The notes below the pieces were generated by a model. It searched no databases. It had not been told where the DNA came from and saw only the letters and a program-made list of their open reading frames with translations. The position numbers and the translations under genes were made by a program. From Folioceros fuciformis (lineage: Eukaryota): a DNA stretch of 64,000 nt. The DNA lies in contig JBNGIO010005876.1 of the NCBI GenBank assembly GCA_049999805.1, positions 20,776-84,775 on the forward strand. The letters run 5' to 3'. Shown piece by piece: positions 823 to 58,223 of this stretch (positions are counted from its first letter, which is position 1; each line of letters starts with the position of its first letter).

Positions 823-3800
823 GCCGCAGAGAACGACAAGGTGTTTCTAGGAGATGAACAACTTGACAGCAGCCTGCAAGTTAAGGGACAAGGCAAAGTT
901 ACTTTCAGACTGAAGGACTGTTCAGATCTTACTCTTGAACGCGTTTTGTACGTACCTGACATGGCTAAAAATCTGTTGTCCATGAGCCAGCTTCTCAAGC
1001 TACGGACGATTGAAATGAGAGCCACCGGTGATACGTGCACCTTCTACAGGAAGGCAGCGCCCGACATTTCTATCTTCCAGGGTTTCCTTGAAGATGATCT
1101 GTATTGCCTTGACCTCTTACCCGTTAAGACTGCCACAGTCCACAGTACTGGATTAGCTAATATGGACACCAAACAGTTGGCTATGTTATGGCATGCGAGA
1201 CTGGGACATCCCAACAAACAGAAATTGTTGGACATGTCTGTTAAACAGTGTTTTAGGGAACCACTTCCCCGCTGTTTTAAGGACTTACCATCCTGCGAGG
1301 CATGCATAATAGCCAAACAAAAGGAGCACCCTTTTCCTTCCGCGCCTGCTTACAGAGCCACCTCTGTTCTAGGTCTGGTCCATGCGGACATCTCCGGACG
1401 GATACAAGTGCCCTCAATCGGTGGTTCCAATTACTATCTCACCTTGACGGACGACTACAGCCGATATACCTGGACGTTTCCCATGCAGAGAAAGAGTGAC
1501 GTTCTTGAAATTTTCAAGGAATGGCTCCCTGCAGTGCAACGTCAGACAGGTTTGTTATTGAAGTACCTGCGTACTGATAACGGGGGTGAATTCGTCAATG
1601 ATGCTTTTGATGCATACCTTGCTGCGGAGGGGATCCAGCGACAGTTGACTGTTCCTTATACACCCCAGCAGAACGGGGTCTCGAAGAGGAAAAACCAGTC
1701 TTTGCTCTCTATGACGCGGAGCATGTTACTCTGGTCGGGTCTACCTCAAGTGTACTGGGCAGAGGCCATCTCTGCTGCGACGTATGTTCTGAACAGAATT
1801 CTTACGAGCTCTGTCCCGAACCAGACTCCTTATGAGGCCCTCCATAAGAAGAAACCCAGCCTGCTGCACTTATGAGTTTTTGGCTCTCGTGCGTATGCTT
1901 TCATTCCTGCAAAGAAACGCCAGAAGTTAGACCCACAAGCTCAAGCCCTAGTTTTTGTGGGGTATAGTGAGCAGGCCAAGGCATATCGGCTGTATGACCC
2001 AACTACAAGGAAGATGTTCCTTGCACGCAGTGTCACCTTCATCGAACCTCACTCTCCATTGCTTGCTCAAGCTCCACAGACAGAGGGAGTTACGGCTGTC
2101 CCTGAGGAGACAGAGGGAGCTACTACGTACCCTGTGCCTGAAGACCAGGTTACCCATCACATGTATCCTCAAGACACCGAACCGGCTGTGAGACTTTTGG
2201 ATGCCGCTGTGGAGACTGACGCACTGCCTGCTGACCCTCCTGCAACGGAACCACTCGCTGCATTAGAAATTCAGGCGGCCCCGGATCCTGCAGCCCTAAA
2301 TGCCCCTTCTTCCCCTGCTCAGGCTGACGAGGACTTCCCAGTAGTAGCCGATGAGCACGACTCAGACTTCATCGCGGATGAAGACATACCTGAGGACGTC
2401 CAACTACCAATAGTCCCTCCCGTTGAGATTACCCGTGATCCTGAAGAAGTTGCTCCTCGCCGCTCAGGACGCCACCGACCACCACCTGATCAATGGGCCG
2501 AACCACGCTATCAGTCTATTGACTTTCGTCACCGGGCAGCCCCAGCTACTACTCACACTGCTCCATCAGCCATACCAGATGAGCCACGCACCTTGGTTGA
2601 GGCTTACAACGGACCTGATAGCAAGCAATGGTATGCGGCTGTTGAGGACGAGTACCAGTCATTGATTAAAAATAAAACCTGGACTCTTGTGGACTTGCCA
2701 CCTGGCCGCAAACCCATTTCATGCAAATGGGTCTTCAAACATAAATTGAATATTGAGGGCAAGATTGCCAGGTATAAGGCCCGTCTTGTGGCCCGTGGTT
2801 TTACCCAGGTGGAGGGTCTGGACTATCAGGAGACATTTTCTCCTGTTGTTCGGTCTCAATCTATTCGCATGCTACTGGCTCTAGCTGCAGAATTTGACTT
2901 GGACTTATGGCAGATGGATGTCTGCACAGCATATCTCTATGGCTCTTTAGATGAAGAACTGTACATGCAACAACCGGAAGGGTATGTTAGCAAACAGCAT
3001 CCTAAGAAGGTCCTTAAACTGCTGAAATGCATTTACGGACTTAAACAGTCTGGACGGGTTTGGTATTTCACCATTCATGTTTACCTGCTAGGCCTGTCGT
3101 TTGTCCAAAGTGCTGCAGATACAAATGTTTACAGATTGACCAGGGGCACTGCCTTCGTCATCGTTGCCTTATATGTCGATGATGTTATCCTGGTCACGAA
3201 CAGCAAAGCATTGTTAGCAGAAGTCAAGCAGATGCTCAGCGACAGATTTGAAATGAAGGACATAGGCGATCTAAAATTCTGTTTAGGGATACAGATCCTC
3301 CGCGTTCGTGAAGAAGGGCTACTCATTATCCATCAGCACAAATATATCCGTGAGATCCTGCATAAGTTTAAGATGGATCAAGCTCGCCCAGCTGTTACAC
3401 CTTCAGCTGTGGGCATCAAATTGACGCTTTCTCAATGTCCTACCACCACTGAAGCAAAACAGGATATGGCAGATGTCCCTTACAGGCATGCTGTTGGCAG
3501 TCTCTTGTTTGTGGCAAATTGGACTCGCCCCGACATACAGTATGCAGTGAGCACCGCTTCCCAATTTATGGAAAACCCTGGACGCCCTCATTGGGTCGCC
3601 GTAAAGCGAATTTTCCGTTACCTGCAGGGCACTCACACCTATGGGTTATTCTACAAACGGAGTGGTACAGGCACATTCCATCTCTCTGGTTTCACGGATG
3701 CAGACTGGGGTTCGGACAGTGATGGACGTCGCAGTTTGTCAACCTACTGTTTCTTGCTGGCCAATGCATCTGTGAGTTGGAGCTGCAAGAAACAAACGAC

Positions 3801-4173
3801 AATAGCCCTGTCCTCGACGGAGGCTGAATACAAATCTCTTACAGAAGCCTCCAAGGAGGCAGAGTGGGCTCGACAGTTTCTGGCTGATCTTGGTCATCCT
3901 CAACTTTCTCCCACTCCTATCCTCTGCGACAATACTGGTGCTCTTGACCTTGTTGCCAATCCCCGGTATCATGCTCGCACGAAGCATATCGAAATACAAC
4001 ACCATTATATCCGAGATGTATCTGCACGTGGCGTGGTGAGGGTTGGTTATGTCGATACCGAGCTGAACACTGCCGACATCTTCACCAAGCCGCTCCCTAA
4101 GCTCAAGCACTATACACACATGACGGGACTCGGCCTGCAGGATTACTCTGCCTACTTCGACTCAGTGTCATGA
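823..4173 (+). pseudogene. Copia pol: protease C-terminal part, GAG-pre-integrase, integrase, RT and RNase H; one in-frame stop
   Basis: LWHARLGH..CEAC zinc finger, VHAD..LRTDNGGEF integrase core, ARLVARGF and YVDD RT motifs, FTDADW..ADIFTK RNase H. ORFs 841-1875 and 1957-4173 share a frame and are split by TGA at 1873-1875 (LHL*VFGS). Confidence 0.93.
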
Positions 4174-4790
4174 CTCTAGCTACCGCAGCTGGATCTGAAC
4201 GCTTATCTGGGGGGGGGGGGGGGGGGGGGAACCTAAGTTCCCTTGTTGCTGCTCCTCTCCAGGCACCGTCTCCTGCAGTCCATATCTACAGTCCGTCAGT
4301 GTCCTTTTTTTTTTTGTCATGCTGTTGCAGGTGGATGAAGCTTCATATACCTGATCTAATCACTCTGCTCCAGCTTCTACAGTACTCCCTTCCATCCCTC
4401 TGGTGGCCGGCACAAATTCCATGGGCAAGGGGACCTTGGCAGCCATCTACAGCAGTTCGCGGGCGTGCTCCGTGCTGGTGTCTTCAGGCCACTTGAGGAC
4501 TTCTTCGGCACGCCTAACTCTGGCTATGGCGATCTCCATCGACCACTTGCCCTCCCAACCAACAAATTTGATCAGCTGTTCCACCCTCAATGGCGTCCAG
4601 CTCTGATGCTCCTGTCTTCCATCTGCTAGAGCAACGAGGAGAGCCGCCACAGTGAGGGTTTCCGTCGTGGATTTGCCCATCTTGGGCGCCTGGAGCTCGA
4701 CAGTGCTGGGCGATGGCGCTTCCGTTTCTCCACAGAACGGAACGTATCGACGTTCCCCTCTATGCCGTAATCCGTTGACGCCGTTAGGTT

Positions 4791-9234: not shown

Positions 9235-9940
9235 ACTCTAACCCTTGGATGGATATCGCTCTCTGGCTCTGGGATAGGATGTTCTAGCCTTGGATGGACT
9301 AATGCTTGGATGGATGTTGGGCTCTAGCCTTGAATGGACTAACCCTTAGATGGATGTTGGGCTCTAGCTTTGGATGGACTAACGCTTGGATGGATGTTGG
9401 GCTCTAGACTTGAATAGACTAGCCCTTGGATGAATGTGGGGCTCTAGCCTTGAATGGACTAATTCTCTGTTGGGCTCTAGACTTGAATAGACTAGCCCTT
9501 GGATGAATGTGGGGCTCTAGCCTTGAATGGACTAATTCTCGATGGATGTCGGGCTCGGCTCTAACCTTGGATGGATGTAGGACTCTAGCCTTGGATGGAC
9601 TAACCCTTGGATGGATGTCGGGCTGTAGCCCTTGGACAGATACCTTCTAGGTAATCTTGAGTTTGCCCTCTATTCCATACTGGATATTTGTCCTCTAGCC
9701 CATATATGCTCTAGCCAATCCTTGGATGTGTGCCCTCTAGCCCTTGGATGTGTGCCCTACAGCCCTTGGATGCGTGCCCTACAGCCCTTGGATGCGTGCC
9801 CTATAGCCCTTGGATGCGTGCCCTATAGCCCTTGGATGTGTGCCCTCCAGCCCTTGGATGCCCTCCAGCCCTTNNNNNNNNNNAGCCCTTGGATGTGTGC
9901 CCTCCAGCCCTTGGATGCCCTCCAGCCCTTGGATGTTCGG
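9235..9940. repeat. Minisatellite array built on a CCTTGGATG core (~40-bp units grading into ~21-bp units); contains an assembly gap at 9874-9883
   Basis: Many copies of gcccttggatg(t/c)gtgccct and ctagccttg(g/a)atggactaa. Confidence 0.9.
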
Positions 9941-15112: not shown

Positions 15113-16457
15113 ATGGAAATAAGGAAGAATTTTATGATAATTCTTATCATTTTTCTTGTAAGTATTTTTTATAAAATTAGTATGTAACTATTTTTAAATT
15201 TGTTATATATATATATATTTATGACTTTTATTTGATGATAAATCTCCCAATATAAGACTCTAAATGTTCTTTCATCTTGTTCAGGCAGGCAAGCTAGCCT
15301 TAAGTACTGCATCCACATTGAAGTTCTTCGAATCAATGTCCTTTGACAAAGTGCAAGATAAGAATTTGAATATGGATAGACTGACCTATTGGGATACAAC
15401 ACTTCCTCACACATCCATGCCTTTGTCACTAAAGAACATGGTATCTCCTCTCACAAACCAAGAGACAAACATGTTCTACGAGTTGATCAAATTGAACCAA
15501 TTGGATCACAACAATGAACTTCGGGTTAGCTTTTGCACTAAAGCTTCACTTGTTTGCAATACCTTGGATAATGTCACAGATAGGAATGCGCTAATAATCC
15601 CAGCATGTGTTTGGAACCCCTTTGGAATATACTTTGGGTACCTCCCGGGAAAGATGGTGCCCAAAAACTTGTTTGTACATGGAACAAAGGATGACAACTT
15701 ACTAGTGCCTCCCAATGCTGTTTCCAACATTCCCGATCAAGTTCGACTTTTGTGGTTCTTTGAACAGACTCTTTCGTCTGCTGTGGATTTGGATGAGACG
15801 TTCGCTGTCACTGTTGAGATGTTTTATGCAAGTCTGTTGCAAAGAGTTTTTCTTCCTCGTAGACTCGTGAAAGCTTTTGGGAGATTAACGTCTAGTAGAT
15901 TATCCTTCTTCCAGAAATGGTTAAACATTCCTCAGAATTCCACTATGGCTACTTCCATGAAAGACACTGCAGATTTATGTGACGTGGGATCGAATTCTAT
16001 AAAGAATGGAGAAACTCGCAAGTGTGTTACATCCTTGGAGGACATGATTGATCTTGTGCAAGAGATGTTAAGTGGAGCAAGCCATGTTACAAAGATTCAA
16101 GTTCTGACAAACAAGTCCTTAGGTGAGAGAAGCAACTATCATATAAATGAAAGCTTTGTTGTAACAAAAGTAGACTTAAAGAGCGGCATAGAGTCCAAGT
16201 ATGTGTCTTGCCATTCCTTGTTGTTTCCCTTTCAAGTATATTTTTGTCATTATTTTGTAAATACCAAAATATATGATGTTAGCTTAGAGTCCTCCATTCA
16301 TTCAGGGATTAAGATTAACAACATTGCTATATGCCATACTGATACGAGAAATTGGGATCCCCAACATGTGGCCTTCAAAGTGCTTGGTAGCAGACCAGGG
16401 GGGCAAACTATTTGTCATTGGTCCAAACCTAATGCATTTGTATTTGTAACTGCTTAG
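15113..16457 (+). CDS. Secreted BURP-domain protein; exon 1 15113-15157 (signal peptide), exon 2 15285-16457
   Basis: Four CH dyads (VSCH..YFCH..AICH..WDPQHVAF..TICHW). Short exon MEIRKNFMIILIIFL joins in frame via a GTAAGT..TTCAG intron. Confidence 0.88.
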
Positions 16458-21781: not shown

Positions 21782-23132
21782 GCTAAGATTTACACCAGAT
21801 TGCCTGATGAATTTAGAATAGCAGGAACAGGTGCCCTCTCTGTTCACACTTGGAGCGAGTACATGCTTGGATGTATGAGAAAGTGAAACTNNNNNNNNNN
21901 TCACACTTGGAGCGAGTACATGCTTGGATGTATGAGAAAGTGAAACTACCTCAGATGTCTTCCCATTAGATTAACTGCGTTACTCTAACAAATGTCTCCT
22001 CCTGTAGCTCATACGCGGTCTTCAGGACCTTAACTGTCTGGCAACAAAGCACAGCCATATCCCGACCCCTAACTACCTTTGCTTTTGGAAGCAAGACCTC
22101 GAAGCAGGCTAGTCTCAGATTAGCAGGAGTTTTTGCAGGTGCATGATGCCAGATGGGAGGGTTTGCATAGCTTCCCAAGATTTAAGGTACTAAATTTAAG
22201 GAAGTGGAGTCGGCATGAAGGCTAGGCGATATTGAGCTTGTGATTCATGAAGGTAGGAGGTCAACGCCATGCTAAACTGGCTTTTTGGGGCAGGCCATTG
22301 GATCTAAACCCTAAGCCCTTAAATTCCATTGGTACCACTACACCAGCTCACGTGTCCTATAGCTCAACTATTTGTCCTTACAGAGCTAGGCTAAATGTTT
22401 TAGCCGAATCAGGGGATGCAATCTACTGGATGGCTATGTCTGTAGCGCGTTATGCGGTTTTTTTCGATTCGAACATTGCGTCAGCGTGGACTATAGCCAG
22501 CAGCCTGCCACTTTTCCACGTCCCAAGCGCACGAATTCCCGTCTGCAAAATTCTGCTGAACACCTGTGGATCAAGTGAATCTCTTTGTACTAGCCAATGC
22601 CATCAAACAGCTCGAGAGTCGCTTTTTGTGGGGGTTGTAAGTGGAGCTTTTGTTACATCTAAAACTGTTTTTTGGTGGCATGTTCTATCAGACCTACTTG
22701 CACATCCTTGGTGTAGTCTATACTATCAAATTCCTCATCTTTACTATAGACTGGTGATCACAGGAATCGTTGGTTAACAACCATAAACTACAAGTGGCCT
22801 TGGGCCTAGAGCTCGGAGCTCTACTTGCTTGTACGTCCAGGAGCTCTCAGATCTATTTAGTTACATCTCCAGAAGCTCGGGCACCATCTACTATTTCAAC
22901 GTACCACTGATGAATCCTAAAGGTCCTCAAGAAAGCTGTTATGTACTCCCTGACCTCGCAAAGGACATGGCAGCTGCAACCTTCAAAGTGGATGTTAAGG
23001 AGAATGGACAGATTTCAAACGTTGAGAAAGGCCCCCTTTCCTGGTTACAGACTGTGTTTGGGATTTCCGTCCATATGTGTCCACCAGCTACCTATGTCTT
23101 TCGAAGATTCTCCCTCAACGACCTCAGCTGAC

Positions 23133-46230: not shown

Positions 46231-48560
46231 CCTTCCGTCAGCACAATGTCCTTCTTCTTCTCCCAATAGCAATCTTGCCAAGAATCATCCTTCACCTTTG
46301 AATAACTCCTGATACCAACACTGTTCATCAAAACAAGGTCGCTGTCCCTGGCGACCAAAAGCTTGTTAGAAGGTGGCAGATAGAACTGCAAAAACCCTCA
46401 CTCTCTCCCTCACTTTCATTCCTCTGAGCTAAACACCCCGATTCCCAGAATACAACACCAGCTATCGCACAGATCGTCGTTGCCTAATAGCCAGTGAGAC
46501 CACCTCCAAAACCGAAACTAGAAAATCGTCCATCAACAGGTGATCACAGAGCTGAGAACGAAAAGGTTCAGAAGAATTGCGCACCACCACTACAAATCAG
46601 CTGTCTCTGCCACCCCTTGCTCTTCCCCCACAATCAAAAAACACACTTCGCCACAATTGCTTCGCTGCCAATGAAGAGGTCCCTGAAGCTGCCGATGCAC
46701 TGGTCACACCTTGCATCAAGCAGGAAGACAGCGAATTCTCGCTCCTTGGTTTCACCTCCAGGTTCAATCCTCGTTTTGTCCAGACCTCACAAAATCAGGC
46801 GGAAACAATTCAAAGGAAATGCACCACGCCTCGAAAAATTGCGCTGGAGGAGCCGGCGAGCGATGGATTCGCTGCACTTTCGGTCCGCTACATCGACGTG
46901 GAAGCAATCGGTCTCGTTTGCTGGAGCTTCATCCGCAGGGCGGAGGCAACCGGCGGGAAGCTGCGCAGCCAGTTACGCCAGACAGTTTAGCCAGGTTGCT
47001 GCCTTCATTGTAAAGAGCCTACGCAGTCGTCAGCCGCGTAAAGGCGAGATCTGTTTGGCGAAACTGCTCGACGTCGGCAGCTAGAGCAACGAACGGTGGA
47101 CTGGTATCCTATGCAAGAGGGCGCTTCCCTTGAAAGCGGGGAGACGTGTGGCCTGTTTGTCGGTTCTTCGCCCCCAAGCTACGGATGGCCGTTATTAGCC
47201 AACTAGAGCCATGGAATGCAGCAACTAACGACCACGGACTGCGAATCGTACCAAGTCAACTCTCCCTAGCGGCAGCAATTTTTTTTTCTCCCACTTACGC
47301 CAAAATAATTTATTAGACCTCCAAAATGGAGGTAGATAATCACAATTACCTACCCGGCTGGCGGGTAGAGCGTAGCGGTGGCGTAGGGAAGTTGTGCCGA
47401 CACCATCGTCCACCTGTGCTCCTGTTGGCTTCAAGCATCCGGCATCGAGGACGCTGCTTTTTCCCTCTCGCCATCCCGTCTCCTCACCTCGGACCTGCAC
47501 CTCGGATGAACCGTCCTTCCGCGTTCTCCGTCTCCCATCCATTCAGTGGGATTCAGGAGTTGGAGCCTCTTTGGCCTTGTTCGTCTGGCCCTTACGGTAC
47601 AGATTGCACCCTGGAGGATGTCGTGCAGTGCTGGCGTGCCAGCGAAGGAGTCCGCTTTGTCCGCCTTGGCTAGGGTTGAAGAAATAAGAGCCCCGCGGGC
47701 ATGGAGAAGGGTGATCTCCAGATTGCCACTGGTAAGCAGATCTGGAGCCCATCCTTGAAGTGGAAACCTGATAAGGAACCGGTGTCCTTTTCTGGACGTT
47801 CTCCTCGTTGTCGGATAGGTAGGTGTCAGATCCCAGCGCGCGCTGGCGTAGTGTCGGAGACACGGATGCGCGTCTATCCTCCGCACCTACGTTTTTGTGC
47901 ACACTTCCGCTGGACTCCCGAATTCGTCTTTGCGTCTGGATCGCTCAATGAGGGAGATCGGTGGTTAGAAACCTCGGGAAGTGCGTTCTGGTGTTGTTCC
48001 CGATTCAGTAGATTGCGCCTTGATGGCTGGCATTCCATGGCTGCCGGACATCCGCCACACTTGGAACAGCCTACGAAGATTCTCTGCCTGAACATGATGT
48101 ATGAGGGCTGACTGCCAACCTAGAAGCGCAAGCATTACTACTTAGGTGTATGTCGAAAATGGAGATCACGAGAAATACGAGGCCCCCGCTGCCTACTTAA
48201 ACCTAAGAAGGGAAAGTTGAACTCCGGACACCGCTGAGCATCCTGGTGGAATGACACGGCGTAGTGCACGGTGGAGGGGCGAAGAATGGGTGTAGAGGCA
48301 AAAGCAGCGGTAGAGATGCTGGAAGGAAACGGATTAGCCAGCGGGGATTCTCATTGGGGTCAGACTTGTGAAATTAGTCAGAGAACGCTGATGCGCTTGT
48401 GACGGATGAAGTCCAGCCATGGCGAAATAGCAACTGACCTGGTTTGTGGGGAGATCCGGAAGTCGAGCTGTTGGAATACAGCGTCCAAGTTGGACTGCTT
48501 CTGCCAGCTGTACGTACAAAGACATTTCTCCTTGCAAGCATACGCAGCGGCCAAGCGGAA

Positions 48561-50228
48561 ATGGAGATCGTCTCCGCGGCGGAGGAGTCGGCGTCCTTCT
48601 GCTATCGGTTGATAACGCCCTGGGCCAATTACGCTTGGATGTATAATGTGCTCATGGCGGCCCCAGCCGTGCTGCTCTTCTTTTTTTTGGTTGCCAACGC
48701 TCGGGCCAGCGTGAGGAAGCTTGCGCAGAGTCAATCACACATCATGGCCACCTACTACTGCTTTTTATGGGTGATTTGCTTGCTCAACATTTGCTGGTGT
48801 CTGGTGGAGGTACATCGACTAAAGCCCTGTCAGCTGACGAATGCCGTCTGCCCCAAGAATCTGGATGCATTTGCTGAAGGGATTCTGGTACGGAAATTTA
48901 GGTGTCTGGTTCCTTGAGGCCCTCTCTGACTGTAGGCTGTTGAATTGTCAGGTTGGGCAAACCGGTGCCGGTGAAAGGGCAACAACATGGAACGTGGTTG
49001 CGTTGGTGACGCGCAGTGGCATGTTACTGCTGGAAATTAGCGTCATTGTGTTCCTGAGCCAAGGGTATCTGGTCAGTGGTTGGGATGCTCTTCTACGGAC
49101 GCTCCTGTTCTCTGGCCTCTTCGCTGCCGCAGACGTCATTATTAAGGTTTTTACCCTTGCCCACCAGTGTGGTATTTGGAAACAAACTGTGCCAAGCCTT
49201 CTGGTCACACTTGTTAGCTGTTTGATTTGCCTGGTTCATGTGAGGATGCAATCAATGACTAGACAAGTAGTGTTGACGAATGCAACACCCACTTTCTGCT
49301 GAAAGATTCATGCCCTATCTTTCATCTGCAGAGATCTGTTGGAGAACCTTTCTTACGTGCTTGTGCAGGCGATATACATTTTTGGGATAGGTGTTCCTCT
49401 GTTCATATTCAAGGACGATAGTGGAGACTGGCGAAAATGGGGCTTCTGGCTTGTACATTCTGCCTTTTTCTCGGGCCTGTACTTGTTAATTCTTATACTT
49501 CCGCATACGAAATGGAAGGAACGGCTGCCTGGTAAGATATGGGTACTGACAGCTTGGTGCGACATGACGAGAGGCACCAGTCTCCGGCTTGCTACGGAAC
49601 TTCTGGTAGAGAATTTCAGATGTCTAACTACCTTCGTAACCTTGGATGTGAGCAGCACGTCCATCGTTTTATCGATATGTCTTCCTTCTGTTTCTGCTGA
49701 ACTTTATGACGGCCTTTGGCAGCTCCCTACTTGGCTTCAAAGCTACATTCGGCTACTGGTACGTGGATAACATCCCTTGATAGCTATATCCAAGATTTTT
49801 TTTTTGTCTTTTTTTTCACACCAAATTGGCGGCTGTTTGACAGTAGCTTCTGAACAGGTGCCTGCTGTCTAATAGATATTGGCCTTTGGTAGAAGAGGGC
49901 GAGTTTTGAGGATGTAGATGTGGGTCTTTGATGTGTTGTCACTGGTTTGGCATTGTACAGTGTTTATGGTGTAACGAGTTTTTGTTACTACGCGATTTAT
50001 CCACCTCTCCTCTATGTCACATTCCTGTCCGATTTTTTCCAGGTACAGTTATGGAATACCTTTCACGCACCATGTTTTTGTTGATTTGATATGCTCTGGG
50101 TGCGAGCCAGATCGATTTCACGCTGCAAGTGATTTGATTCTATGGAGCAGGAAGAGCACATGCAAGCGGAGGATGTGTACTATTCTGAGATGAAAGACGC
50201 TGGCTACTTCGACACTGAATGGGATTGA
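48561..50228 (+). CDS. CAND2: CAND2/PMTR1-like multi-pass membrane protein (TPRA1 family), 6 exons
   Basis: SHIMATYYCFLW, GMLLLEISVIVFL.QG, WKERLPARPSFY, YPPLLYVTFLSDFFQEE..YYSEMKDAGYFDTEWD*. Confidence 0.88.
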
Positions 50229-51042
50229 TCCAATAGCCATCTTAATGTTCAGCCGATGGTAAACAGCTTGATAACATCCTGTGTCAAAAGATGCACATTA
50301 GCAAGCAAAGCCTGCATCATGAAAGCGTCCAAAGGCAATGAGTTGTTGTCAGAGACATGTAATCCGGCGGTTGCGGATGACATAGGTTTCACTGACACAA
50401 AGGGCCGGTCTCTTGGATGTACATAGGATTGTATTTTAAGCATTCTAGGAGCTCAAAATCAGTCTCCCGAAACCACCCACCGCTAGTGAGAACCGGTGGA
50501 AGTGGGCATCAGATCTAGAATAGTTTCACGGAGCTGCACGCATTTTCATGTATGTTTTGGAGAATAGTGGCAACGTGCCTAGTGCCCATGGATGGAATCT
50601 CGAAGCGGAGGCAGGGAGGCAGGTCTTTGAGCCAACCCATCCCCTGGACACAACTCCAGAAACCCATTGATCCTAAACCCTCAGTAGAACTGAATATCAT
50701 GATGAGTAAGTTATAACTACTCATCTTGCCATTCTGTACAGATATCACAATTCTTTATCATCCTTTGGTTAGTATCCTATCTAATTTCTCGTTCGAACTT
50801 GGTGCTGAATTTCCAAGTATGCGGCATCACTGGCTATCATGGGCCTGTCCAGTTAGCGAGATTGTTTTCACACTTTTAGTGATGCTGTGAGCCCGTGTGT
50901 GGGCGTGAATGTGATCGGATCCCATTTGAATTGTATGTCACCACAATCGGATTAGGTTGGAACCTCACAATGCCACGGTTCGTATTTCCTTTTGGAACAC
51001 CATCTATGCCATCACCGTGGCCCTGCAGCTGGTAAGTTTGTT

Positions 51043-51650
51043 CTAGGCATATTCAGCTGGATTAGCTACCAGGCGTGCTTCGAGAACCTTCAGAAGTTGC
51101 GCATAGCCGTTTATGTGTTCCACGGGGGGAGGTTGCTCGCCTATTGGCTCGTACTCAATAACGTAATGAACGATGGAGTTGGAAGGGACCTGAGCAGGCT
51201 GAATCTGTGTCGTCACCTTGTACTGACTGTACAGGGACAGCGCCTCTCCCTCCACAACATGATAGCTTGCAGTGAGCTTTTCGTCATCCACTTCATCAAT
51301 CACGTCCTTCGTGGCCGTGAGCTTGATCGTTGATGCTATCTCTGCATGGATATCGCGCACCCGGTCACATTCCAATATCCTCACACACTCCTCGATTCAC
51401 TGAGCATCACCGCACATGATTCGGCAACGTAGGATGACAATCCAGGGTGGTAGATGAGTAACTCACCTGTGGCAGGGGCGAACTTGATAAGTCTGATGCT
51501 CCCAGGGCCTCCGTCACCTTCAATCCAAGTGACGCTTTCGACCACTCCAGGCAGAAGGACGGGCAAGAGTTTCGGGAAATCCCGAAGAGCATTCCACAGG
51601 CGCGCTGCCGTGACAGTAACCTCCACATCCAGGATCTCGGTCTTGGTCAT
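51043..51650 (-). CDS. PR-10/Bet v 1-like protein; exons 51650-51467 and 51341-51043
   Basis: Gly-rich loop IEGDGGPGSI, C-terminal EARLVANPAEYA, and a single phase-1 intron in codon 62 as is typical of PR-10 genes. Confidence 0.92.
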
Positions 51651-53362
51651 CTTGGCAGTAGGGGACAATCACGAAGAGAACAAACGGTTTCTGGAAACAC
51701 TTGGCACGGGTGAGGTCTGAGGTCGTCAAGCCTGGACAGTCGCGACGAACCAAAACGAATGCAAGATAAGGAGCATTGAGTACCACGTAGCTTTGAAGTG
51801 CCGAAGCTGCACTCTAGGCACCTGCGTTGCCAGCCAGATCGAGCGTCACTCCGACTGCTGGCTTTGGGTTCTGCCTTTCCTCAATTTTATTCTGCAGCTC
51901 TCTCTCTTGCATGCACTGTACAGAGCTGCCAGTGATCAGCAGACGTGCGGTGAGGCCACGGGGGCGGAGAATTTTAGTAATGAAGGCCCCAACCTGCAGA
52001 ATGTAGGGGTGGATGGAGTTAGATGCCTTCGCACAACAAGTCACTCCCCACAGTCGTCAATCAGCCTTCTTTCCTATGTCAAGTTCCAGGGTGTACCTTC
52101 TGAAATCCTTCGGAAGCAGTCTCAATTTGGCTTGCGCTGTTGATTGCAACAGTCAGATACTGCTTCTTTCAGGCTATCCGATGCGATGTTCGACGGACCG
52201 TGTTCCTTCTGAAACTCGTTGGGGGATGTCTACATTCCGATAGCACTGTTGAGAGCAATAGTCGTGCCATAGTAGCACTTTGGCTTATCCGCTCAGTACC
52301 TCGACAAACAGGAGAACTAGACTTCTCAAGCTGCTTCAAACCTGGCCAGCGGAAGCGGGGCTGCAAGAACCTAGACTGTGCAGAAGTAGAAATTCCCGGC
52401 GACGAGCTCCTCCGGAGCCAGCACATGCCGGCAGAGGGTCCCAGGCGACCGGGGGCTCCGCATCCGCCTGTAGGATAGCACGCGAGTAGGCGTTCTACAT
52501 CAGATTCTCCACACCGCGCCGCAAAGCCTGCAGCGGCTCAGCCCTTCCGACCGCATCAGCACAGGCAAGTGAATGAAAATCTCTGCACTCGCCACATCTT
52601 TGTGTTAGGAAAAAATGTCGTAGAGGATTTGCAGACGTGAAATCTGGCGGCCCCGACTGCCAGCTTCTGGATGGCGGGATGCGCACGCACATGCGGGGGA
52701 AGGACCTCCTGCACCGCCGTCTCGGTCATGGTGCGGAGCAGGCGGAATGCAGGCGCCGTTGTACCGCCTCACGTGGGAGTACAAGTCCGCGTCCCGGCCG
52801 CAGCTTTCGACGTCCTCTCACCTGGTCAGACACGCGCGTACGCATCCATAGTGGCCTAGCATCAGGAATTCGAGCACCCGAGAGCTCACGGCCCCGGCGG
52901 GCATGACGCCGATGTAGTAGTACCCGATGACGACGAAGGGCTCCAACAGTCCTGCACCGCTCCGGGACGAAACGTGAAACGCCTCCGGCCGCCGCTTTGT
53001 ACAGAGCAATCGAGACAATGGAGAATCCCTCTGCTTGTCACAAGCTCTGGCACACACCTAAAAGTCTTTGCCTACGAGCTCATGAATTTCAAGAGCAAAT
53101 ATATTATTAAAAAAACAAGCCCACGGGCCCAACTAGGGCCCGCGGGGTATGGAGACACCGCCGCAAATCCAGTAGCCGAAGGGTCTGCAGAGCTCGGGCT
53201 TCCGGAGACCCTTCAGATCGCTGTCAACATCAGTGAAATCCAAGACAGGAGAGATCGTGTTCAGCAAGCACGCATTTCGGCAGTTCCTTGAGCCGTGCTT
53301 TAGAACGCCTTGCGATGGAGTTTGCTTGGACTGTTAGCACGGCGGTCACAGAAGCTCATGGC

Positions 53363-53731
53363 TCAAGAAGGAGAAGCTTGTTGGCTTTCCAATAGGCGAG
53401 TGATCCAGTCCGCGACCACGTCCCCATGGCAGGCCAGGGGCTTGCAGTAGCAGGCCAGCTTGAGCTCAGGGTTTCCAGGTTGCGCCAGATGCACCAGCTG
53501 CATCAGGTGCTCGAACTGCGGGTTGGTGCGGCCAGCAAGCCCCTCGCTTACCAGCTGCCCCAGCCAGCTCCTGTACTTGGCCACAACGTCCTGCCTGTCC
53601 CCGTCCACCCCGATCTTGAAAGGGTTGCCCAGCGGAGATCCCGCCAGATTGAACTTGGGGTTCCGCCTCCCGATGTAAACCACGCCTTCGCCTCTCCACC
53701 CCTCCTTGTACCCGTTCACTGCTCGCACCAT
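53363..53731 (-). CDS. Intronless DUF4326-like protein (122 aa)
   Basis: Motifs VYIGR, SPLGNPF, DR..VVAKYRSWL and LACYCKPLACHGDV match the DUF4326 pattern as I recall it. Confidence 0.85.
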   Translation of the reverse strand: MVRAVNGYKEGWRGEGVVYIGRRNPKFNLAGSPLGNPFKIGVDGDRQDVVAKYRSWLGQLVSEGLAGRTNPQFEHLMQLVHLAQPGNPELKLACYCKPLACHGDVVADWITRLLESQQASPS

Positions 53732-54220
53732 AGCCGCGGCCCGCGCACCACTGCAGCTGGTATGCGTGTGTTGAGAACCTGAGGCAGTGCACGGGAGGGT
53801 GAAAGGGCTGCGAAGTCATGGTCTGCATGTGCATCTCACACCAGCGTAGGAGCTACGGCACATCCAAGCCGACTTACCAAACTGCCCGGAGCCTTCCTGC
53901 TCTCAGTCACAGAGATCTTATCCGAGCCCAGATATTTGCAGACTGTGCCATTTGCCTCAAAAGCAGACACTTCACTGTTGAGTTTGCATTTTGCGCCGGG
54001 CAGGAGGAAGGGTCGCAGGGTCTGGAGGGCCTGGAATCCGTACTGGGCCCTGACAGACTGTAGTGCGGAGATGGAAGGCTGTTGCTGGGCCTGAATGCAG
54101 CTGCCGGTGTTGCTGGGAGCAGGATGCGGGCTAGGGTAGCCGGAGTGCGGTGACTGTGCAGCCGGGCGGCGAAGGAAATACAAGCAGAAGTTCCGCATGC
54201 CGGGGTGCGGAGGGAGAGCA

Positions 54221-56288
54221 ATGGCTCAGGCTCTGGGGCTGAAGCCGTCCGTGATGGTGCCGTCGGGGCACCCGCTGTCGTCGCTCTCCGCCACCAACTG
54301 CGCCAGGCCGCTGCAACAGCGCTGCGCGCACCTGGCGCACGGCCTCAGATTGTGCTCAGCTACGGCCTCNNNNNNNNNNNNNNNNNNNNNNNNNNNNNNN
54401 NNNNNNNNNNNNNNNNNNNNNNNNNNNNNNNNNNNNNNNNNNNNNNNNNNNNNNNNNNNNNNNNNNNNNCTGAGGGAAGTGGAACTGGAGAGTGGTGCTG
54501 ATTCCGACGGGTCAGAGGAGAAGCCTGGAGCCTGGAAGTGGGCCATCCGGAAGAAGATTTGGGACTTGCTGGAGGCCGAGAACTTGGCCCAAAGCCCGCG
54601 GCCTGTGCACCATCGGATTCCGAATTTCGTGGGTGCGAATGTGGCAGCTACCAAGGTGCTGCTCCTGTCAATGTCTGTGCTTTTGGGTTTTGGTGGATTT
54701 TCTTCCATTGTCTGGACGGTGCGGTGCTGAATCTTCTGTGCATCCTCAACATTGTGGAACTGTCCTAGGTGGCAAGTCTGCCAGAATTTGTGGCTGCCAA
54801 GACTGTGAAAGTGAATCCGGATACTCCCCAGAAATTGGTGCGACGCTTGGTCTTGGCTGGTGAGAGCCTTAAGCGTTTTGAGTGAAGAGTATCGGATTTG
54901 CCTCCGCAAATGGCCTGAAGGATCCCGGCTTGAGCATGGGTGCAGAGGGCAAGAAGATGATAACTCCACAGCCTCGGCTTCGGACAGGCTTCTTTTCGTT
55001 GTTGGATCCTGCCGTTCTGTCTTCCGAAGCGATTAGGGAGTGTGTCACCTCAGCAGCGGTAGCCAAGCACGGGAAGCCCCTCACTGTCAAGGCGGACTTG
55101 AAGGTGGATCTGCTTGTTATCGGGTCTGTGGCTGTGGATCCTGCAACTGGTGCCCGTCTCGGGAAAGGAGAGGTAGAGGATGCAGCATGCGTTTCCTGGC
55201 TTGTGATTGTTTAGTGTGCCTTCACGTCAACTCTCCATTCAGCTCCTTTGGGCAATCTGCGATAGGGTTTTGCAGAGTTGGAGTATGGTCTGCTGCGCTA
55301 CATGGGTGCAATCGATGACTCCACTCTAATCGTCACGTCAGGTAGTCTACTTACTCTTCTTCGGTTGTTGGAAGGATGCACCCTCACGAGTCTCTCTCGG
55401 TATGATCTGCTACTGATTGTGCCCCTGATGAGAGGGATGTGCGTTGTCAGTGCATGATAAGCAGCTGGTGGACAACATACCAGTGGAAAAGCTTCTTGTA
55501 CATGACGTCCCGGTGGACATCATCTGCACTCCTACCCAAGTCATCCGCACCAACACAACTATTCCGAAACCTACAGGTAACTCCATGCCATCTGGAATCA
55601 GCTGTAGAATGACTGCTGTTTCTGGCTTCTGTGAGGGACTGGAGCAAGGGAGCTGAGGACAGGAATGGCCTTCGGGGGGCACACAGGTATCTACTGGGAC
55701 AAACTGTCTCCAGAGAAGCTGAGCCAGATCAAAGTACTCAGGGACTTAAAGAGGCAGATCGAAGCTGAAACAGGGAAAAAGCTACCCACAGGGCCGAGTG
55801 AAACACTACCTCCAGTGGCCAAAAGGGTTCCTATTGGCAAGGCTCGAGAACTCCCTCTCAAAGAGAAGCTCGTGCTCTGGTATCTGGATCCCAAGGTAAC
55901 ATGGTTTGATGTGAAGCAGCACGTAGAAAAGGTGGGAGGAGTCGTAGACAGCGTGACCATGTTCGGGGCAAGGACTGGGACACCAAAGCAAGCCGCTCGG
56001 GTGACTCTGAAAGCAGGAGGGACTGCTCCGGTAGAAAAGCTGGCCGAATCTCTCCGGGCCTCGGTTCTGAAAGGCTCCCATGTCAGGGCCAGAGTTCTCC
56101 TACCCAAGGACGGTGCTTCAGAATCGGTGGCGGACATCATAGATGAACAGGAGACAACAGTGCTGTGTACAGCCTCAAACACGGCGGGCGGGCCAGCATC
56201 CCGCGACTCCGAGTCTGAGCCTTCTCCAACAGAAGTAGCTGTTATCGCTACCGCCCAACATGTACGAATGCCCCACTGCCGTCCTTGA
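54221..56288 (+). CDS. COG0212: COG0212 / MTHFSD-like 5-formyl-THF cyclo-ligase paralog with a long C-terminal extension; exon 1 contains a 100-N gap (54370-54469)
   Basis: [79 protein letters not shown]. Exons 54221-54655, 54769-54859, 54946-55172, 55266-55341, 55451-55575, 55687 onward. Confidence 0.9.
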
Positions 56289-56363
56289 CTCCCCGGCCAG
56301 ATTAGTGAAGCGGGCCCTCGCGACAGGTCGTGGTAAAGTGTTGGTTCTAACGCTCTCATGCAG

Positions 56364-56918
56364 AGTGCACAGACTCGTCGACAGGCTCTCTGTTCTCTCT
56401 GCCTTGGAGCTCTCTCTCTGGCTGCTGATTCCCGCCAAGAAGCCCAGGCCCTCTTGGACAACACCCCTGGCTGCCGAAACTGTGGTGGCTCCGGTGCCGT
56501 TCTCTGTAAGTACTGCGTCCTTCATCCTCTCTGCATGTAACCTTGAAGGTAGTGCCGTCCCTCCAACTACATCGTCTGAACCCGCGATCTCGTGCTTCTG
56601 GCCAGGCGACATGTGTGGAGGGACTGGCAAGTGGAAGGCCCTCAACAGGAAGCGAGCCAAGGACATCTACGAGTTCACCGAATGCCCTAACTGCTACGGT
56701 ATATTCCTTCCTGATTCGAATCTCTGGAACGTGCTCTTGTTGCCGGCCAATCGTAGCCAACACCGTGCACTGATTTCCTCCTCGCAGGACGCGGCAAGCT
56801 CGTCTGCCCGGTCTGCCTCGGCACGGGCGTGTTCAATAACAAGGGGCTGCTTCGCAGACCCGAGGCCAAGGAGCTCCTGGACAAAATGTACCATGGTAGG
56901 TTGCTGCCGAGCAGCTAG
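56364..56918 (+). CDS. PSA2: PSA2/EDA3-like DnaJ-type zinc-finger thylakoid protein; exons 56364-56505, 56606-56698, 56788-56918; no separate first exon visible
   Basis: TRR..AQA lumenal-type signal, then [65 protein letters not shown]. Confidence 0.9.
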
Positions 56919-58223
56919 CCGTTGCGTGTGTCCCGTCCTCCGTGCAATCACACCTTTTTTGTGGGGTTCACCCCGTCCGGTAGTAGAGACCATGGAAGCT
57001 TGTGCCTTTGCCAAAACGAGCCGTGGCCAACCCACGACGTCAGACAAGAGCACCAACAGTAACGACACGAAGTGCGTGAAGTGGGCCGCATCACGAAAAC
57101 CAACCACCTGTGTGGGCGGAGTACGGCCACCTCCAGAAACTGTGGTCTGTCACGAGAGCACACTTGCGTTGCGGATAGTGCTGCTGGAACAGAGAACTGT
57201 ACCGAAGGGGCGGGGAAGCCGCCAGGAACCTCCGCGACGCTAAGGTTAAAGGAATTTCACCTACTGTACCAGCGGGATTTGAAGGCACGGCTGTGCAACA
57301 GACACGCGGAGTGGGGGAGATCCGCGACGCAGCCGGAGCGATTCAGCTCGGGCGCCGCGAGGCTGTATTGAATGTGGTAGGCCAGCTGCTGTGGCAGTGG
57401 GCGTGTGTCTGTGCCAGAGTGTTTCGTTGGTGAACGTGGATAGAATAAGACAGTAGCAGTCGGGCTTAGAAGCCTGATGTTGACACAGTCCTGTGACGCA
57501 AGAATCCGTGTGCTACCGACCTCGACTGGGAGTGTGAACTTTCGAGGCAACTGGAGTCTTGTGGTCGGCTTGACCCATGTTTGTTGCACCCTTGTCTGAT
57601 GTCAGTCAAGGTTCTGTGATGGCTACTCCTGCTTCTTGCCCCTATTAGCCTCTGGGATTATGCCCCAGGGTCCCGAATATCAGTGCCGGCCGGCCTTCTC
57701 TTGTCGCTCGCTGCCCTGACTTTGCGTCGGGTCTGTGACAATTAGTTCGTTTGAGATTTGGCGCCCCGACAGGCGGCGGTTTCGGTTTTGCAACCACTGC
57801 TCGGGCTGGGATTGAAGTCCTATTGGCAGGAACTTGTATTTGCTTTGGGCCTGGTGCTCGATTTTGGCCTTGGGCTGTCCGCTTGCTCCGAGACTCCTTT
57901 GTGTCTCTTCTTTGCTGAGTTGCGGGTCTGCATGTTGCGATTCTCTGCCCTGCAAGTGTTGAGGGTGCTAGCTCTGGTGGAGAAGGAACGTCCGCGGCGT
58001 GTCGGAAGCTGCCAGGTGCCGGGATGAACTTTGCGTGCAGAATTTGAGATTTGGGCGGGTGGATTTGGAGGTCCCGGTGGCAGGTTGGGGAGCTGCAAGC
58101 CGTTTGGTGAAGTTGTTGAAAAGGTGGCGAACAGAGTTTTCAAGATGCATGGTGGAAGACAGCGCTGTGGGAATGCTGCAAAGGGTAGAGGAGAGCGGGA
58201 CTGTGGTGTGAGTGCCCACCAGC

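Follow-up and report, generated by a model that had tools for sequence, protein, structure and literature searches.

An intron-free DUF4326 gene, probably acquired from outside plants, among the spliced genes of Folioceros fuciformis

The window analyzed here, a 64,000-nucleotide stretch of DNA from Folioceros fuciformis, encodes on its minus strand, at positions 53363 to 53731, a protein of 122 amino acid residues that belongs to the DUF4326 family. This ORF is probably a real, intact, single-copy gene in the nucleus of a land plant, with an origin outside plants and most likely brought in by a bacterial plasmid, prophage, or phage. Its foreign derivation, considered by itself, can be regarded as quite likely, and the chances that the gene is translated and under selection appear evenly balanced. 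Such a gene would have been acquired singly, from a plasmid, prophage, or phage that carried a long-form stand-alone DUF4326 gene, a type common in cyanobacteria. The first-pass annotation of this DNA had singled out the ORF as a candidate for horizontal transfer. What stands of that proposal is a genuine intronless DUF4326 gene of the bacterial and phage type, located among spliced plant genes and with no plant relative in the searches described below; the nesting within a donor clade that it had envisaged was not recovered.

The coding sequence, found in the list of ORFs and recognized by the Pfam entry PF14216, consists of 122 codons and a stop codon, starts with an ATG at 53731, and is free of introns. 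Its frame is shut 28 codons above this ATG by a stop codon at 53816-53818, there is no earlier in-frame ATG between the two, and the first Met residue aligns with the N termini of the bacterial relatives, so that there is no space for a transit peptide. If the protein is made in the plant, as the proposed scheme would have it, it is probably cytosolic or nuclear, given that there is no targeting extension. The length of the ORF is not significant by itself, since two further frames over the same positions, of 118 and 122 amino acids, are also open. The motifs that had drawn attention to it are all present: YIGR at residues 19 to 22, GNPF at residues 35 to 38, and the Cys/His motif at residues 94 to 104. 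The N-terminal pattern described earlier (VNG..G..G...YIGR.N..L.GS.L.N.F.IG.DG.R) matches the translation as well. The ORF is present in a single copy in the 64-kb window, no second copy or repeat of its region was found there, and a search for flanking repeats that would mark a transposon around it returned short, weak pairs only. On its 3′ side, there is a probable untranslated stretch (53209 to 53362, minus strand), delimited by an RNA contig that matches the window from 53209 rightwards. On its 5′ side, a divergent intergenic region (53732 to 54220), whose ORFs contain no Pfam family, extends from the DUF4326 ATG to the start of a cyclo-ligase-like gene.

Assignment of the protein to DUF4326 relies on profile matches that are far beyond chance. 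The Pfam profile is matched from position 5 to position 81 of 82 with an E value of 5.8e-17 (62.6 bits, compared with a cut-off of 25), PHROG 464 is matched with an E value of 3.1e-25, and the matches in the protein atlas are solely DUF4326 clusters of bacteria and phages; PADLOC and NCBIfam searches with the plant protein gave no match. In an alignment of 31 sequences (the plant protein and 30 relatives), the plant protein retains all 11 invariant columns, represented by Y19, G21, R22, L34, N36, R46, C94, C96, C101, H102, and D104, along with 5 of the 5 nearly invariant ones. The hallmarks of the family that can be recognized in it are YIGR, NPF, the Arg residue before helix 1, and the C-x-C-x-P-x-x-C-H-G-D loop.

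The ORF contains 61.5% GC, and its GC3 of 0.76 is the highest among 17 ORF segments of the window. The GC3 values of the 16 other host segments range from 0.42 to 0.62, those of the two spliced neighbors are 0.60 and 0.55, and the flanks of the ORF contain 56 to 59% GC. A GC3 of 0.76 is unlike that of most cyanobacteria. The genes acquired by Anthoceros angustus are described as more GC-rich than its native ones (PMC7027989), and the GC content of the plant DUF4326 gene agrees with that description.

The surroundings of the gene are those of a land plant. Downstream of it, on the same strand, lies a two-exon PR-10/Bet v 1 gene (51046 to 51668, minus strand), the splicing of which, suggested earlier, is supported by the division of the Bet v 1 profile (PF00407) over two ORFs in different frames: profile positions 4 to 60 fall in 51384-51668 and positions 65 to 150 fall in 51046-51396, both on the minus strand. 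On the other side is a spliced gene of the 5-formyltetrahydrofolate cyclo-ligase family on the plus strand (54221 to 56261, the end being approximate), which had been recognized as COG0212. Pfam places PF01812 on 54882-55211, and GT..AG joints of this gene were found in the RNA contig at 54653/54767, 54858/54945, 55170/55264, 55336/55446, and 55572/55683. The head-to-head arrangement of the two genes at ∼490 bp was described correctly, in that the ATG at 53731 faces an ATG either at 54221 (490 bp) or at 54197 (466 bp). The nearest plant genes begin within 0.5 kb of the DUF4326 gene on one side and about 1.7 kb away on the other; no Pfam family was found in the ORFs that lie in between. There are only three runs of N in the window (9874-9883, 21891-21900, and 54370-54469). 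The last of these, 100 N long, is in the first exon of the cyclo-ligase-like gene, 149 to 173 nt into it and 639 nt from the DUF4326 ATG, and is spanned by the RNA contig and also by a DNA contig that has 22 letters on one side of it. The claim of gap-free contiguity with the PR-10 gene and the start of COG0212 holds for the stretch that it named. A Pfam scan covered 45 of the 321 window ORFs of at least 75 amino acids and five more ORFs; the other genes of the window include a Copia-type element, a ZIP transporter, a BURP-domain ORF, kinase exons, a mitochondrial carrier, and five PPR ORFs with E motifs, all very long and intronless. Across the 13 GT..AG joints listed for the RNA contigs, the introns measure 86 to 222 nt. 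Introns this short, together with large PPR families, are in keeping with hornworts and lycophytes.

Relatives of the plant protein are numerous and distant. A word-indexed protein search yielded 125 of them, the best with 46% identity, and an exhaustive search of 1.84 billion representatives (standing for ∼15 billion proteins) yielded 3587 matches at E values of ≤1e-3, 289 at ≤1e-10, and one at ≤1e-30. This single match, P0144, is the nearest of all, with 57% identity, and its cluster at the 90% level has two members, both from run assemblies. It is followed by P0145 at 53% and then by proteins at 41 to 50%. P0144, the associated protein P0291, and P0145 could each be bacterial or come from other plants. 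No named plant was found among the matches of the exhaustive search of ∼15 billion annotated proteins, the named ones being a minority of these matches. All named relatives in the exhaustive, profile, phage, plasmid, and species-genome searches are prokaryotes, phages, or plasmids.

The named relatives have a pronounced cyanobacterial component. Of the ten best matches that were looked up, two are named, one from Laspinema palackyanum and one from a Lyngbya, the same two genera that account for the named fused relatives. The 120 rows listed for the profile search include 12 with an organism name, and all 12 are cyanobacterial, with 36 to 47% identity (Microcoleus, three times, Merismopedia, Chroococcopsis, Spirulina, Aerosakkonema, Kamptonema, Snowella, Microseira, Laspinema, and Synechocystis). 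There is no Nostoc among these named cyanobacterial relatives and, to our knowledge, no named relative belongs to a Nostocales genus. Plasmid sequences gave 34 matching records, the best four being cyanobacterial plasmids at 40 to 44% identity; phage sequences gave 448 records, every one of them at <60%; and IMG/VR gave four contigs at 40%. No relative emerged when prokaryote genomes were scanned for peptide patterns of the plant protein. When P0291 was compared with 185,579 prokaryote species genomes, eight loci were found, the best at 44% identity over most of the protein; the best loci are in an Elainellaceae cyanobacterium and in Rhodopseudomonas, with nothing close, and an IMG/VR search with P0291 returned no match. 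Bacterial relatives sit on mobile elements next to anti-restriction genes in two loci, one where the DUF4326 gene is found beside genes for terminase and ArdA (L012) and one where it is found beside genes for ArdC and TraG (L015).

The position of the plant protein was examined in a careful maximum-likelihood tree of 80 rows and 123 columns, in which fused proteins were trimmed to their DUF4326 part. The rows were 71 of the 402 stored proteins, six phage proteins, two IMG/VR proteins, and the query; the 71 comprised the closest matches, all 15 organism-named proteins, and ten short-form outgroups, the others of the 402 being left out. In this tree, the plant protein forms a trio with P0144 and P0291 (support 99/87). 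A clade of 41 rows (95/86) takes in each of the 14 named cyanobacterial rows and leaves the trio outside. The trio weakly (86/52) adjoins a group of the Escherichia phage N4 protein gp12, which is a long branch, two more phage proteins, and two further proteins. A quick tree of 97 rows contained the same trio in a similar neighborhood. A topology in which the cyanobacterial clade and the trio are sister groups was not rejected by the AU test (log-likelihood difference of 9.2, p of 0.354). An ad hoc motif from the middle of the protein, present in 3 of 3 trio rows, in one of the 14 named cyanobacterial rows, in none of the 8 viral rows, and in 15 of the 55 others, does not discriminate between donors. 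The cyanobacterial resemblance noted at first sight has some basis in the 12 of 12 named profile rows listed, the best four plasmids, and the named fused relatives, but nesting inside the cyanobacterial clade was not recovered.

As judged from these alignments and trees, the plant protein appears to belong to a bacterial and phage radiation of the long-form type, without a donor that could be named. The identity ceiling of 57% disfavors recent acquisition from any of the sampled lineages, including symbionts; a recent transfer from a symbiont is not indicated by the sequence comparisons, which likewise do not show a cyanobiont origin of the gene. The closest counterparts remain the cyanobacterial long-form stand-alone proteins of Microcoleus spp., Merismopedia glauca, and Laspinema olomoucense, which are similar in length (113 to 121 amino acids) and also have an N-terminal strand before YIGR. 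Together with the plasmid copies from Microcystis aeruginosa NIES-2481, Synechocystis sp. B12, and Cyanobacterium aponinum, these long forms are the best named matches (36 to 47%), and they share with the plant protein the invariant Y, G, R, N, R, C, C, C, H, and D residues. However, they are prokaryotic and often located in plasmid or prophage-like regions, whereas the plant copy, with its GC3 of 0.76, is nuclear, lies among spliced genes, and is placed outside their clade. Phage proteins of PHROG 464, exemplified by Escherichia phage N4 gp12 and by those of Achromobacter phage Axy13 and the Ralstonia jumbo phage RsoM2USA, have the same domain and motifs but are 34 to 41% identical to the plant protein, and the three phage rows in the group beside the trio are placed there with weak support (86/52).

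Evidence for the presence of the gene in the plant genome comes from contigs of three public runs from two studies, compared with positions 48000 to 58000 of the window. Two runs (X1 and X2) represent one DNA sample; the third (X3) is from the other study and another year and was taken as RNA because its contigs carry GT..AG joints. Four further runs (X4 to X7) contained hardly any of its sequence words, which does not speak for its absence from them. X1 DNA contig 4 covers 52848-54187, X2 DNA contig 13 covers 53583-54239, neither contains any differences from the window, and the X1 DNA depth is 7.3 to 15.2 across all 30 bins, with 9.99 over the DUF4326 ORF. RNA contig 19 of X3 (7531 nt) shows no splicing from 53209 to 54369; past this point, it bridges the run of 100 N and has eight listed GT..AG joints, which belong to neighboring plant genes, namely, to the cyclo-ligase exons and beyond. 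Over 53209-54369, no run that includes this stretch shows a single sequence difference. The divergent intergenic region at 53732 to 54220 is covered by the RNA contig without a break; X2 contig 13 includes it as part of its span, and X1 contig 4 covers it as far as 54187. The RNA contig departs from the window at 53209, its remaining 526 nt match nothing in the window, and the minus strand has a GT exactly there, at 53209-53208. This coincidence could reflect a splice donor on the sense strand within the 3′ untranslated region, with the partner exon missing.

The DUF4326 stretch is, then, represented in RNA, strand aside. The contig is strandless and also includes the oppositely oriented cyclo-ligase gene, which leaves room for a reading in which the gene is foreign-derived but a functionless passenger, open by chance or youth, and in which the RNA is only a by-product of the divergent promoter of the cyclo-ligase gene, through antisense or promoter-proximal transcription. 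A GC3 that is the highest of the 17 segments would suit such a passenger, in that its composition has not drifted toward that of its neighbors. However, the retention of 11 of 11 invariant residues and of the full domain length argues against it, as does a start codon context with a purine at −3 and G at +4. Moreover, the nearest relative at 57% identity and the lack of a recent donor among ∼15 billion proteins argue for long residence, and long residence without selection should have broken a frame of 369 nt. A passenger is considered unlikely.

Vertical inheritance of an old eukaryotic or streptophyte gene, lost from most plants and never transferred into this lineage, is quite improbable. 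In its favor, P0144 and P0291, with which the plant protein forms its well-supported trio, have a GC-rich composition unlike that of the cyanobacterial rows, and the distance of P0291 from anything in the 185,579 prokaryote genomes and in IMG/VR means that both could be plants or algae. However, a widespread plant family should leave many matches, and below 1e-30 there is a single cluster at 50% identity, with two members at 90%. The relatives that carry an organism name are all prokaryotes, phages, or plasmids, and the DUF4326 gene is intron-free while the neighboring genes have many short introns. Acquisition from outside plants remains the preferred explanation.

The donor could also be sought among giant viruses (NCLDV) or other eukaryotic viruses, with the gene being the remnant of an endogenized viral insertion. 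DUF4326 has been described in Pithovirus, Marseillevirus, Pandoravirus, and others (PMC9503650, PMC7824862), and a search of BFVD with the predicted structure of the plant protein found 18 matches at E values of ≤1e-3, with TM scores of up to 0.82, the named ones being mostly phage and giant-virus DUF4326 proteins, including those of these viruses. However, the identity of the viral models to the plant protein is at most 32%, compared with 40 to 57% for the bacterial-type long forms. The multidomain proteins of giant viruses and phages, in which DUF4326 is fused to SLOG, Macro, or NADAR domains (PMC9503650, PMC7824862), have the same fold (TM 0.5 to 0.8), but in the plant protein the domain stands alone, and no Macro, NADAR, or SLOG family was found in the scanned ORFs of the window. 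There are no viral hallmark genes and no viral-type block, the ORFs for several kilobases on both sides being plant-type or unassigned by Pfam, and plant genes begin within 0.5 kb and about 1.7 kb of the DUF4326 gene. Such an origin can be considered very doubtful.

Contamination of the DUF4326 stretch, against which the first-pass annotation had already argued, is very unlikely, since the RNA contig joins the ORF to a spliced plant gene independently of the assembly; a chimera of bacterial and plant DNA, the least probable of the readings considered here, could draw on the breaks of the listed DNA contigs at 52845-52847 (bridged by none of them, X1 having a 28-letter loose end there) and at 54188-54192, on the loose ends of contigs at 52848 and 53209 (whose sequences, like those of the loose ends at 52506 and 52729, were found nowhere in the window), and on the scaffold gap of 100 N at 639 nt, but X2 contig 13 crosses the break at 54188-54192, the RNA contig that connects the ORF to plant exons comes from the other study, DNA depth is equal over the ORF and its flanks, no differences are seen over 53209-54369, and the foreign part amounts to one ORF with GC-matched flanks (0.56 to 0.59).

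An AlphaFold2 model of the plant protein, of the kind that had been recommended earlier, is confident (mean pLDDT of 96.2, pTM of 0.89). It contains three strands and three long helices, and the Cys/His site falls in the loop that connects strand three with the final helix. According to the model and the alignment, strand 90-94 ends in C94 and is followed by a loop to H102 and by helix 102-119. Foldseek comparison of the model with the PDB gave no match at E values of ≤1e-3, and sequence searches of the PDB gave no real match to a solved structure. An exhaustive structural aligner listed the C-terminal domain of RapZ at the top (Z of 6.6); 33 of the 50 listed neighbors are cysteine phosphatases of the PTP/DUSP fold (Z of 3.2 to 4.0), and two are NADAR-type entries (NADAR/YbiA; Z of 3.9 to 4.1). 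All these matches to solved folds fall in the Z range that the aligner itself calls common. The plant protein and the PTP/DUSP phosphatases appear to be alike in the succession of a strand, a Cys-bearing loop, and a helix but are unlike in that the Z values are just 3.2 to 4.0 and the CX5R signature is absent: none of the 31 aligned sequences has an Arg between C94 and H102, and the invariant Arg residues, R22 and R46, are outside the Cys/His loop. A candidate catalytic or metal-binding site can be assembled from C94, C96, C101, H102, and D104 together with R22, N36, and R46; the three Cys residues and the His of the loop could instead form a zinc site.

The family has been predicted by Iyer, Burroughs, Aravind, and colleagues to be phosphatase-like, as a member of the rhodanese-phosphatase superfamily that would act on ribose phosphates in ADP-ribose products, and phages and giant viruses have been proposed to use it in NAD-centered conflicts (PMC9503650, PMC7824862). 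A fusion protein of SLOG and DUF4326 from the giant virus Tunisvirus is mentioned in a preprint (bioRxiv 10.1101/2025.06.06.658234). The literature consulted on DUF4326 offers predictions only and no reported activity of any member. Among the relatives of the plant protein, DUF4326 is fused to SLOG/DprA-like domains in five proteins and to Prim-Pol, Pol-beta thumb, and HTH domains in one each. These fusions and the loci of the relatives agree with the published phosphatase-like prediction, from which the mechanism is inferred. If the role proposed for the family applies to it, the plant protein would be a small enzyme that acts on the ribose-attached phosphate of ADP-ribose-derived or related nucleotides; its assignment to this substrate class (phosphoribose or ADP-ribose derivatives) is tentative and may well be wrong.

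The literature search found no report of DUF4326 in plants and no mention of PF14216. A. angustus is stated to have 19 microbe-derived genes, none of them from cyanobacteria (PMC7027989), and a survey of 49 streptophytes is stated to have found 1,809 transferred families, with 229 such genes per bryophyte on average (PMC12513842). Neither paper refers to DUF4326 in its text, and the spreadsheet supplement of PMC7027989 contains neither DUF4326 nor PF14216. The DUF4326 gene shares with the transferred genes of bryophytes and land plants described in these papers (PMC7027989, PMC12513842) its short length, lack of introns, GC content above that of native genes, and position between plant genes. 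The transfer of genes from microbes to plants is already well documented, above all in bryophytes, and the event itself is unsurprising. As described, the pipeline of PMC12513842 excludes cyanobacterial donors by design, so that genes like this one fall in the blind spot of at least one large screen that removes candidates of cyanobacterial origin.

DUF4326 has been tied by comparative genomics to phage-host conflicts that revolve around NAD and ADP-ribose. Plant immunity likewise uses ADP-ribose-derived signals. It can be speculated, although the chances of this being correct are rather slim, that the plant gene encodes a domesticated phage or plasmid counter-defense enzyme that dephosphorylates ADP-ribose-derived nucleotides and thereby tunes TIR-type NADase signals or those of microbial partners, and that it has been missed by screens that discard cyanobacterial best matches. 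The plant copy would, in any case, provide a handy non-viral entry point to DUF4326, an uncharacterized counter-defense domain.

In the alignment of contigs from public sequencing runs, the DUF4326 ORF is covered by an RNA contig of 7,531 nt, which parts from the window sequence at position 53209, and the 526 nt of this contig that lie beyond that point are absent from the window. A minus-strand GT is found exactly at the break. To the left of 53209, RNA coverage persists, collinear with the window and at lower depth. Splicing to a missing exon could account for the break, as could structural variation among individuals or chimerism of the contig.

Farther into the interval between the PR-10 and DUF4326 genes, a stretch of ∼224 bp (52506-52729) is probably a dispersed repeat. 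Contigs from the RNA run continue at both of its ends into sequence that is not part of the window, as does a DNA-run contig on the left side; one copy is 90 to 95% alike, with a 79-nt skip, and a 34-nt contig in this stretch has doubled depth. An unassigned part of the same interval contains two direct repeats of 64 nt each (52091-52263), which are 70% alike and have a spacing of 109 nt.

Among the bacterial relatives, the DUF4326 gene of a cyanobacterial MAG (locus L012, positions 3962-4297) is flanked by the genes for a terminase large subunit and the anti-restriction protein ArdA, and the DUF4326-matching ORF in Rhodopseudomonas (locus L015, positions 3322-4281) is flanked by an ArdC-type gene and a gene for the TraG coupling protein.

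Elsewhere in the window, the Pfam scan of ORFs revealed five intronless and very long PPR ORFs (760 to 1,514 aa, as stop-to-stop frames), which form a 25-kb cluster that involves both strands (10245-35485) and each of which terminates in an E motif. The cluster has the appearance of tandemly expanded PLS-class editing-factor-like genes. The BURP-domain ORF at 15264-16454 has a GC content of 39.7% and a GC3 of 0.42, well under the values of its neighbors; the word-indexed protein search returned no relative of this ORF at an E value of ≤1e-10, although its Pfam match is at 2.3e-47. The polyprotein of a Copia-type retrotransposon (integrase and RVT_2 domains in Pfam; 823-4170) is split between two adjacent frames, so that this element is probably degenerate.

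A scaffold gap of 100 Ns (54370-54469) interrupts the cyclo-ligase-like gene in its first exon region. An RNA contig whose shorter side has 184 letters spans this gap, as does a DNA contig (22 letters). Public data could close the gap.
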